A stretch of DNA of 17,432 nucleotides from a virus (IMGVR_UViG_2778261167_000008:1-17432), one strand, 5' to 3'; shown: positions 14,384-16,340, counted from the first letter of the stretch. Notes: a model not told the origin generated them from the letters alone. Numbers and translations: made by a program.

Positions 14384-14640
14384 GACGCTTTAATGGAATG
14401 TTCCGTGGGGAGTCAGAGTGGCATTATAAGTTAGATTCCATGATTTAAGACTTCCCTGTCGGCATACATCACTGTATGCAATAGTATCAGACAAAAATAA
14501 CAATGCCTATTATTTGCTCTATTCAAAAAAATTAAAAATGCTTAATACATAAAGTTTTGTTATTTATGGATTGAACAATGCGGATCTCATAAGTTGTATT
14601 TGTTCCTTTATTACATCGATATAGATTGCGGAATGGTTAT

Positions 14641-14681
14641 TATAAAAAATATAAAACAAGGCGCATGTAATACGCCCTGTT
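14641..14681 (-). terminator. Rho-independent terminator of the minus-strand acyltransferase gene
   Basis: On the minus strand: AACAGGGCG-loop-CGCCUUGUU (one G-U pair) followed by a U-rich run, 8 nt after the stop. Confidence 0.6.
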
Positions 14682-14688
14682 GGTATTA

Positions 14689-15852
14689 TTACTTATTTAT
14701 TTTAACCAAGATCTTGTCAGCAATCATATAACTTTTGGTTTCTATGTGTTTATGCACATAGTAAGCTATCAATAAAGCAATAGGTATCGGTATTAATATA
14801 GCTAATGATCTCGGCATTAAATCGTAATAAATAACTATACTGATTATAAGATATCCTATGTATGAATGGCAAAGATATAAAGGGTAGCTGATGTTTGACA
14901 TGAATTCAGCAAAACTGTTTTTTTTGAAGTTATGAGATGTTGCGATACATATGCTAAAAGCTAAAATGCTTATAGCCAACCAGCTAAAAGTTAGTAAAAT
15001 AGGAATGTATTGACCTTGCGGGACTATTTTCATGCTAATATAAAGGAATGAAAAATACTGACCTGCCAATAACGCGATAAGTGATTTTACTTTTATTCTT
15101 TTCTTTGTGAATAAGAAAAAGCTTGTTCCAAAAAGTATAAAAGACATTAGATGTAGCGACTTTATAACTGTGCCAATGTTCAAGTATGGGAGTAGTAATG
15201 ATAATTCGCTATAATATTTTGAAAGAACTAAGCATATTGTGTAATTTAAAAAACTTAGAGTAATTATATCGGATGATGATATCTTTTTTTCTTTTTTGTA
15301 CAGAAAGGATAAATTAAAGAATAAGGAGGAAATAATGTAAAATGTAATTTCTATTGCAAGGGTCCATGCAACTGGATCAAGCCAATTACAGCCGCTAATA
15401 TATGTGTTAAGGCCGATAAAATAGGATGTAAAAATATCATAGTTACTATAGGTATACTCAACTCCATTTTTTTTAAATACACAGTATCCAATAAAGGCAA
15501 TTAACATATTTAATGAAAAGATAAAAAAGTATGTAGGATACAAGCGGAAAAATCTTTTTAAAAGAAATGTCTTGATGTTATATTTTTCAATTGATAATGG
15601 TATAACAAAACCGCTAATTATAAAAAATATAGTAACACCAAAAACGCCAAGAAAACCTGGGAAATCCTGAGGAATGAAACCAATGATCCACGGATATGTT
15701 CGGTCCTTTACTTGAGGTGCGTTAACTAATGGTGCTAAAACATCATTAGAGTTAAAAAAAGCAGTTCCATAGTGTGCAATAACTACAGATATTGCAGCTA
15801 AACCACGTAAGTAATGCGCGAATAGATATTTATTTTCCATTTTATTATTCAT
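14689..15852 (-). CDS. Second membrane acyltransferase, acyltransferase-3 family (Oac-like), divergent from the tail operon
   Basis: 387-aa multi-pass membrane protein with YLRGLAAISVVIAHY, GVTIFFIISGF and RFFRLYPTYF motifs. AT-rich island; a start at 15840 (MENK...) is also possible. Clearly distinct in sequence from the 12817-13908 protein. Confidence 0.8.
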   Translation of the reverse strand: MNNKMENKYLFAHYLRGLAAISVVIAHYGTAFFNSNDVLAPLVNAPQVKDRTYPWIIGFIPQDFPGFLGVFGVTIFFIISGFVIPLSIEKYNIKTFLLKRFFRLYPTYFFIFSLNMLIAFIGYCVFKKNGVEYTYSNYDIFTSYFIGLNTYISGCNWLDPVAWTLAIEITFYIISSLFFNLSFLYKKEKKISSSDIITLSFLNYTICLVLSKYYSELSLLLPYLNIGTVIKSLHLMSFILFGTSFFLFTKKRIKVKSLIALLAGQYFSFLYISMKIVPQGQYIPILLTFSWLAISILAFSICIATSHNFKKNSFAEFMSNISYPLYLCHSYIGYLIISIVIYYDLMPRSLAILIPIPIALLIAYYVHKHIETKSYMIADKILVKINK

Positions 15853-15866
15853 TTTAAAATGAATTT

Positions 15867-15894
15867 ATTATATCATACTAAATGAAAAAGTAAA
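15867..15894 (-). promoter_or_regulatory. Candidate sigma70 promoter for the minus-strand acyltransferase
   Basis: On the minus strand: -35 TTTACT, 16-nt spacer, perfect -10 TATAAT, 15-27 nt upstream of the candidate start codons. Confidence 0.35.
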
Positions 15895-16340
15895 TCTACT
15901 TGTTACTATTTTTATTGATGCTTGATTGTTATTTATCTGGGGTGAATTTCTGTTTATTAAACACTGAATTAATCATCACGTTCATTTTGTAGAGAGAATA
16001 GTAATGATTGTTTATAACTTCATTGTATCAGAATATATTGAAGAACAGATATTTTAAACATTTTAGGGGTAACTAAAAACAATCAAACTGTTAACCAATT
16101 TCATTAATAGCATTATGTATGCATGATTGTGATAATCATAATAAGGTTGTTGAGAAAAACTAATAAGATGAATAAAAGCTGATTCGCCTCGACCCCGAAA
16201 TTTTCCCGACGACGCCACGAAACCAATGGCAACTGATTGATCTTGAATGGTTACAATAGTAAGTATCAGGAGGTGTATTTTAGTGGTTTTTTGGTGTTAA
16301 CTTACTGAAGTATATAGATTATTACGGTTTGAGTTGTAAA

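Follow-up and report, generated by a model that had tools for sequence, protein, structure and literature searches.

The right-hand part of a 17,432-nt stretch of viral DNA (IMGVR_UViG_2778261167_000008:1-17432; the window, to which all positions refer unless another locus is named) holds the end of a prophage and the chromosome adjoining it. Between a remnant of the gene tfa and the right attachment site, attR, lies a very AT-rich island (14384-16339, 1,956 bp) with 29.9% G+C, against 52.9% in the phage body (1-10700) and 45.7% in the chromosomal flank. The island contains one gene, here called AT3-2 as the second acyltransferase-3 (AT3) gene of the window, the first being AT3-1. The initial annotation, made from the sequence alone, had described an AT-rich block at 14384-16160 with a single 387-aa acyltransferase-3 gene on the opposite strand. 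The gene was confirmed as an open reading frame (ORF) on the minus strand (Table 1) and the AT-richness of the block stood, but its right edge had been drawn about 180 bp short, as attR begins at 16340.

The protein was compared with profile collections. This showed a significant match to the Pfam family PF01757 (Acyl_transf_3) with an E value of 1.1e-22 and a score of 80.9 bits (cut-off 31 bits), residues 13-365 being aligned with positions 5-323 of the 326 in the profile, which is the result that the initial annotation had proposed looking for. AT3-2 also matched a PHROG family annotated as O-acetyltransferase (E 5e-35). Its sole NCBIfam match, to MdoC/OpgC (NF003014), was very weak (E 0.003, 16.8 bits) and far under the equivalog cut-off of 338 bits, and the assignment of AT3-2 as OpgC/MdoC was rejected. 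An alternative in-frame ATG at 15840 would give a 383-aa form, the one annotated by RefSeq in other genomes. AT3-2 is distinct from AT3-1, as had been noted, with merely 34% identity across 184 N-terminal residues.

Two sequence motifs of the family were located in AT3-2. The first, R-X10-H (defined as R/K-X10-H in PMC9833829), is R16-GLAAISVVIA-H27 in transmembrane helix 1, and the second, RXXR, is R100-F-F-R103 at the cytoplasmic end of helix 3, with FFIISGF just before it. Both are essential in the acetyltransferases OafB and Oac (PMC9833829, PMC9558356). When 83 homologue sequences were aligned, H27 and R100 were found to be invariant and R16 and R103 to be at least 90% conserved; FFxISGF, D159, W163-T-L-x-x-E168 and S322-Y-P-L-Y-x-x-H329 were also invariant or nearly so. 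An AlphaFold2 model (pLDDT 94, pTM 0.91) has ten long helices and is all-helical to the C-terminus, giving the ten transmembrane helices of the TmAT fold; the closest solved structures are HGSNAT and GWT1. Only one Pfam domain is present, with no fused SGNH or other domain, so that the architecture is AT3-only (stand-alone). The same architecture is found in Oac, WecH and Lag-1.

The coding sequence was also compared with the allele in a related prophage of E. coli strain 1506 (locus L001). There are 19 synonymous and 7 non-synonymous differences, corresponding to dS (synonymous divergence) of 0.083, dN (non-synonymous divergence) of 0.0077 and dN/dS of 0.093 (p 2e-8), and on this pattern AT3-2 is evidently under purifying selection. 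Judged by its sequence and predicted structure, AT3-2 is an intact, selectively maintained stand-alone AT3 enzyme with a ten-helix TmAT fold. It is close to certain that it is a functional AT3 cargo gene of the prophage.

The limits of the prophage were established by comparison with E. coli K-12. Homology begins exactly at 16340, which is nt 79 of the 104-nt sdsR (RyeB) gene, the sdsR coordinates being those of the K-12 record. In L001 a 31-nt repeat beginning ACAGGAATCGTRTTCGGTCTCTTTTTAT occurs at both prophage ends (9501-9531 and 19957-19987), and the second copy corresponds to window 16340-16370. The K-12 boundary and the repeat bear out the proposal that AT3-2 belongs to the prophage, with the tfa remnant on one side and attR on the other; as these sequences define it, the prophage has its insertion point in the final 26 nt of sdsR, and the island is wholly within the prophage. 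The same site, the last ~23 bp of ryeB, has been described as the attachment site of Salmonella phage PhiW104 (PMC7380047).

The distribution of the island agrees with cargo status. In a survey of 5,426 complete E. coli genomes it was present in three (98.3% identity; L001-L003, all with a divergent AT3-2 allele); all genomes match the window from ~16326-16338 on, and the others match nothing before that. With 5,423 genomes lacking AT3-2 and the K-12 junction exact at the att core, the gene is not part of the core chromosome, which the initial annotation had held open. The same slot carries other cargo elsewhere, nleG7 in the enterohaemorrhagic E. coli strain E2865 and two hypothetical genes in strain 98232, and the slot genes at this att site, AT3-2 included, all have the same orientation. 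AT3-2 is therefore carried, as a temperate-phage gene, in a receptor-binding and att region. In an assembly collection, 55 blocks list a protein identical to that of AT3-2, and its 90%-identity cluster includes proteins of Salmonella enterica (97% aa identity) and Citrobacter portucalensis. The tailspike cluster and both AT3 clusters were found in E. coli, Citrobacter and Salmonella. IMG/VR gave no match, and the GTDB species representatives contained no close relative, giving one irrelevant 39-residue match.

Table 1 Features at the right-hand end of the prophage and in the adjoining chromosome
Feature	Position	Strand	Basis or remarks
Tailspike, 678 aa, receptor-binding protein of the present siphovirus-type prophage	10720..12756	+	PF18668 (Tail_spike_N)
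AT3-1, first acyltransferase-3 gene, co-oriented with the tailspike	12769..13908	+	PF01757, E 3e-31
Recombination joint, AT3-1 module to tfa remnant	13909..14117	.	Contains a 40-nt scrap, 13939-13978
tfa remnant, C-terminal part	14111..14383	+	PF02413, profile positions 50-131 of 131
AT-rich spacer, 32.5% G+C, between the convergent tfa remnant and AT3-2	14384..14688	.	No ORF of note
Terminator-like hairpin and T run	14645..14681	-	12-bp stem at 14655-14681 with 5 G-C pairs, then TTATATTTTT
AT3-2, stand-alone acyltransferase-3 membrane protein, 387 aa	14689..15852	-	ORF, ATG start
AT-rich non-coding stretch, 487 bp, 28.7% G+C, from AT3-2 to attR	15853..16339	.	Prophage DNA; stop-ridden frames only
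Sigma-70-like promoter match, TTTACT-16-TG-TATAAT	15867..15894	-	10/12 matches, TG extension
attR core, ACAGGAATCGTGTTCGGTCTCTTTTTATCTG	16340..16370	+	Begins with the 3'-terminal 26 nt of sdsR (RyeB)
Chromosomal ryeA, first 64 nt	16340..16403	-	K-12 annotation mapped; transcription start at 16403 faces the prophage and AT3-2
pphA, first chromosomal gene past attR	16500..17156	+	Pfam and K-12 homology

Full-length relatives of AT3-2 with 49-55% identity were found at prophage ends in E. coli, Yersinia enterocolitica and Cronobacter dublinensis (P0004, P0010, P0007 and P0018). The neighbours of the E. coli relative are a Mu-type fibre gene and tfa, near int; the Yersinia relative is next to a P22-type tailspike with a GDSL domain, and the Cronobacter relative is next to a Tail_spike_N-GDSL tailspike in a siphovirus like that of the window. 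A second E. coli relative lies between a GDSL tailspike, again P22-type, and int. P0004, P0010 and P0007 are convergent with the receptor-binding gene, and the fourth, the E. coli relative between tailspike and int, is co-oriented with it, with an insertion sequence (IS) in between. Relatives at 43-44% identity occur in islands with glycosyltransferase and WavE genes. AT3-2 defines an uncharacterised stand-alone AT3 clade in which linkage to phage receptor-binding genes recurs (E. coli, Citrobacter, Yersinia and Cronobacter); close copies of AT3-2 have also been recorded from Salmonella.

Tailspikes with a GDSL/SGNH esterase domain pair with this clade in Yersinia (L013, 9181-11412), Cronobacter (L015, 9182-11428) and E. 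coli (L030, 2181-4391). From their sequences, such pairs would consist of a probable deacetylase, the receptor-binding protein, beside a probable acetyltransferase. A conserved hydrophobic ORF of 62-65 aa is found directly upstream of the homologues in E. coli (L010, 7775-7963) and Yersinia (L013, 7759-7956), in the same orientation; this membrane ORF was sought in the window and is absent.

By analogy with characterised members of the family, AT3-2 is probably a cargo enzyme that acylates a surface glycan, be it the O-antigen or a different one. Because of the analogy with Oac, OafB and PhiV10 (PMC9558356), the best-supported function is the passing of an acetyl group across the membrane to such a glycan. 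The gene sits as lysogenic-conversion cargo in the slot between the receptor-binding genes and attR, and could be expressed from its own AT-rich promoter, possibly with additional read-in from ryeA. As judged from the family, acyl-CoA, most likely acetyl-CoA, would enter a cytoplasm-facing cavity lined by R16, H27, R100 and R103, and the acyl group would then be moved across the inner membrane to a hydroxyl group on a surface-polysaccharide sugar. The most likely acceptor would be the O-antigen repeat unit, with about an even chance that the acceptor is specifically O-antigen. Modified in this way, the glycan would present a changed epitope, adsorption of phages that use it would be hindered, and serotype conversion would be expected. 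Prophage acyltransferases alter O-antigen or capsule epitopes, with effects on serotyping, on vaccine targets and on the host range of phages.

Several observations weigh against this assignment. Similarity to the Oac protein of Shigella phage Sf6 is marginal (BLASTP, 35% over 55 aa; hhalign, 96% probability over the N-terminal 150 columns), and a search of the GenBank phage collection gave no nucleotide match and only N-terminal protein matches of 29-33%, so that none of the phages sequenced there has a close homologue. No Shine-Dalgarno sequence precedes either ATG. A sigma-70-like promoter match is situated ~8 nt upstream of the first ATG and is unchanged in the four alleles compared, but promoter-like sites are not above chance in the region (11, versus 14.9 +/- 4.4 in shuffles). 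Finally, a 1-bp deletion in the T5 run at 15583-15587 splits the divergent allele in L002 (E. coli MSB1_1D) and L003, and another E. coli copy consists of two partial proteins with a duplicated YIY, which suggests that it was disrupted by an insertion. AT3-2 is therefore dispensable in some hosts. The possibility, raised at the outset, of a pseudogene frameshifted in related genomes is thus realised in part, by the divergent allele in two of the three complete E. coli carriers and by one disrupted copy, but the window allele is intact and widespread.

The alternative that survives best, though it is fairly unlikely, is that AT3-2 acylates a different glycan: enterobacterial common antigen (ECA), as WecH does, group 1/4 capsule, colanic acid, the lipopolysaccharide (LPS) core, or periplasmic glucans as in the case of OpgC, where the group is succinyl. 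AT3-only proteins act on all these substrates (PMC9558356), and the spread over E. coli, Citrobacter and Salmonella could fit a cross-genus receptor such as ECA. The very weak MdoC/OpgC match also speaks for a different glycan, but its score is far below the cut-off, and the clade is consistently found beside strain-specific receptor-binding proteins, tailspikes among them. A variable receptor, typically O-antigen or capsule, fits this arrangement better than periplasmic glucans do.

The non-coding parts of the island were searched for further signals. The terminator that the initial annotation had assigned to AT3-2 at 14641-14681 is confirmed by the hairpin of Table 1, which begins 8 nt past the stop codon. 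An Rfam search of the whole window at the gathering threshold gave no family, and one of 13850-16520 with E values allowed up to 1 gave neither a partial SdsR or RyeA nor any other family; a repeat search of the island gave short chance-level matches only. Given such a base composition, silencing of the island by H-NS is plausible. The flanks appeared to be unusually conserved between the window and L001 (0.8-1.6% change versus dS of 0.083), but this was discarded as a signal since the window and the Citrobacter allele (L022) show the reverse pattern; the flank pattern is attributed to recombination between alleles and not to constraint. Divergence across the island (14384-16339) is patchy, the coding sequence being nearer to L022 and the upstream flank nearer to L001, which points to recombination between island alleles.

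The ryeA promoter, a sigma-70 promoter (PMC6610125), stays on the chromosomal side of attR, next to pphA, and is aimed into the island. No intrinsic terminator was found between the ryeA start (16403) and the AT3-2 start codon 550 nt downstream, and the 564-nt stretch from the ryeA start to the AT3-2 start has no unusual fold (z 0.46). Because of the lack of both a terminator and unusual RNA structure in between, read-in from ryeA is possible. It is a rather doubtful suggestion that the captured promoter transcribes the cargo slot as a chimeric RyeA-acyltransferase mRNA, which would tie acetylation to the growth-phase logic of RyeA/SdsR. The insertion also parts pphA from the sdsR promoter reported to drive it, and pphA would lose the promoter that normally does so.

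With dN/dS of 0.093 and all catalytic motifs intact, it is improbable that AT3-2 is a silent relic of an older prophage end, H-NS-silenced, drifting to a pseudogene and contributing nothing to the lysogen. The truncated tfa beside it, the 30% G+C, the frameshift in L002 and L003, the copy with the duplicated YIY and the failure to find a significant promoter or ribosome-binding site would all suit such a relic, but the frame is intact and identical in many assemblies from two genera, and two heavily deleted prophages have retained the gene. In L002 an IS3-family element at 9738-10966 (window ~16106-16110) lies in the non-coding region upstream of the frameshifted allele, which also counts on the side of decay.

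Slipped-strand switching at homopolymer tracts had been put forward in the initial annotation. The two tracts named (T8 at 14918-14925 and T7-C-T6 at 15284-15297) are present, together with T8 at 15467-15474 and A7 at 15754-15760, and four runs of at least 7 exceed the 1.1 found in mononucleotide shuffles (p ~0.016). The switching itself did not hold up, as none of the loci compared had a tract of altered length: L004 and L005, both E. coli assemblies, match the window at 100% here, and L006, a metagenomic chromosome assigned to Citrobacter from its ProQ, RsmF and PphA proteins, is identical across the gene. In the other allele a substitution interrupts the T8 at 14918-14925, and the sole frameshift is elsewhere, in the five-base run at 15583-15587, where it is common to two genomes and looks inherited. 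Truncated members of the protein cluster reflect the apparent insertion (YIY), the frameshifted allele called from a downstream start, or partial records. All the tracts fall on Lys (AAA) or Phe (TTT) codons, in a gene of 30% G+C. A Dam/OxyR switch of the gtr/oafB type is unlikely because there is a single GATC site in the 487 bp upstream. Although oafB and gtr are known to vary in phase (PMC9558356), phase variation of AT3-2, by slipped-strand mispairing or under Dam/OxyR control, is very improbable.

The preferred assignment of AT3-2 as a surface-glycan acyltransferase carried as cargo leaves the presence of two such genes on one prophage to be accounted for. The tfa remnant reported in the initial annotation is real: it represents the last ~88 codons of a 143-codon gene, and from 14118, where homology begins, it is 96% identical to the intact tfa in L001-L003. 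In these three genomes the island follows the intact 143-aa tfa of a degraded myovirus-type prophage (baseplate J, DUF2612, gp53-like fibre). All the DNA leftward in the window is siphoviral, with Enterobacter phage CobraSix and Cronobacter phage ENT47670 as relatives. Positions 11122-13875, comprising the C-terminal part of the tailspike and AT3-1, have an 86% identical counterpart in E. coli TW14425 and APEC17, a tailspike-acyltransferase pair that sits in another prophage with lysis genes after it. On this sequence evidence AT3-1 and AT3-2 have separate histories, each tied to a different receptor-binding module, and two independent surface-glycan modifications, as first suggested, would be the natural reading.

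As AT3-1 goes with the tailspike and AT3-2 with the tail-fibre end of a myovirus, the window prophage is therefore a recombinant that inherited both. By these comparisons, AT3-2 was once at the tail-fibre/tfa end of a myovirus-type prophage at the same att site. Recombination then swapped everything to the left of tfa codon ~56 for a siphovirus tail and the tailspike-AT3-1 module. The outcome is one prophage with two unrelated AT3 genes, the recombinant end of which is now spreading as a unit between E. coli and Citrobacter.

Comparison with other genomes is consistent with a mobile end. L004 and L005 are 100% identical to window 4689-17432. L006 is identical to window 13600-16350 bar one base, its flanks being just ~70-80% identical, and the identity stops at 16351, within the att core. 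This shared segment supports the initial description of the two AT3 genes as residing on one prophage, as one mobile unit. L008, which is without window 4198-12707, and L006, in which RecT is joined to 10627, both keep the two AT3 genes and have lost most structural genes; these deletions are independent events. The locus shows a prophage collecting two AT3 genes via a tail-module swap, with its end moved between genera very recently.

Three further observations were made in the phage part of the window. The tailspike (10720-12756) is chimeric: its N-terminal part is like those of Enterobacter and Cronobacter siphoviruses, with matches ending at ~10816-11093, and from 11122 it is AT-rich and matches proteins of E. 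coli prophages that have a different N-terminus and are 765 aa long, forms of 765 aa also being found in Salmonella. The segment 13939-13978 is identical to the acyltransferase-intS spacer of P22/Sf6-like prophages at argW, a scrap of a third phage type. A 179-aa HNH_3 endonuclease ORF at 6810-7349, in the middle of the tail gene module and at a local dip in G+C (0.40-0.45), looks by its sequence like an inserted homing endonuclease.

Current understanding is unchanged by these findings. What AT3-2 offers is a well-delimited candidate on which LPS chemistry and, perhaps, read-in from a host promoter at the sdsR att site could be examined.

Among known systems, the closest parallel in arrangement is Oac (OacA) of phage Sf6, an O-antigen O-acetyltransferase. 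Like AT3-2 it is AT3-only (333 aa versus 387 aa) and has R-X10-H and RXXR-type motifs. The order in Sf6 is tailspike, terminator, oac on the opposite strand, oac promoter and int, and AT3-2 shares with it convergence with a receptor-binding gene, its own terminator and promoter (the latter a candidate here) and a position at the att/int end of the prophage. Sf6 is, however, a different phage type and integrates at argW instead of sdsR. OafB (family II GtrC, from the Salmonella prophage BTP1) and OafA have the same AT3 motifs and ten-helix fold as AT3-2, and, encoded on prophages, acetylate the O-antigen and thereby modulate the interaction with phages (PMC9558356, PMC9833829). They differ from the AT3-only AT3-2 in carrying a fused periplasmic SGNH domain and an eleventh helix, and no Dam/OxyR signature for phase variation, such as oafB has, was seen upstream of AT3-2. 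PhiW104 of Salmonella DT104 shares with the window prophage an att site in ryeB/sdsR and splits ryeA; the available part of that study concerns a small-RNA effect and describes no acyltransferase cargo (PMC7380047). The uncharacterised prophage AT3 relatives differ from AT3-2 in att site and phage type, and several of them accompany GDSL-esterase tailspikes. Set beside these systems, AT3-2 is an ordinary example of the known prophage surface-glycan acyltransferases, in the canonical position of a conversion gene, and is notable solely because its prophage, a patchwork that moves between E. coli and Citrobacter, has a first such gene besides.

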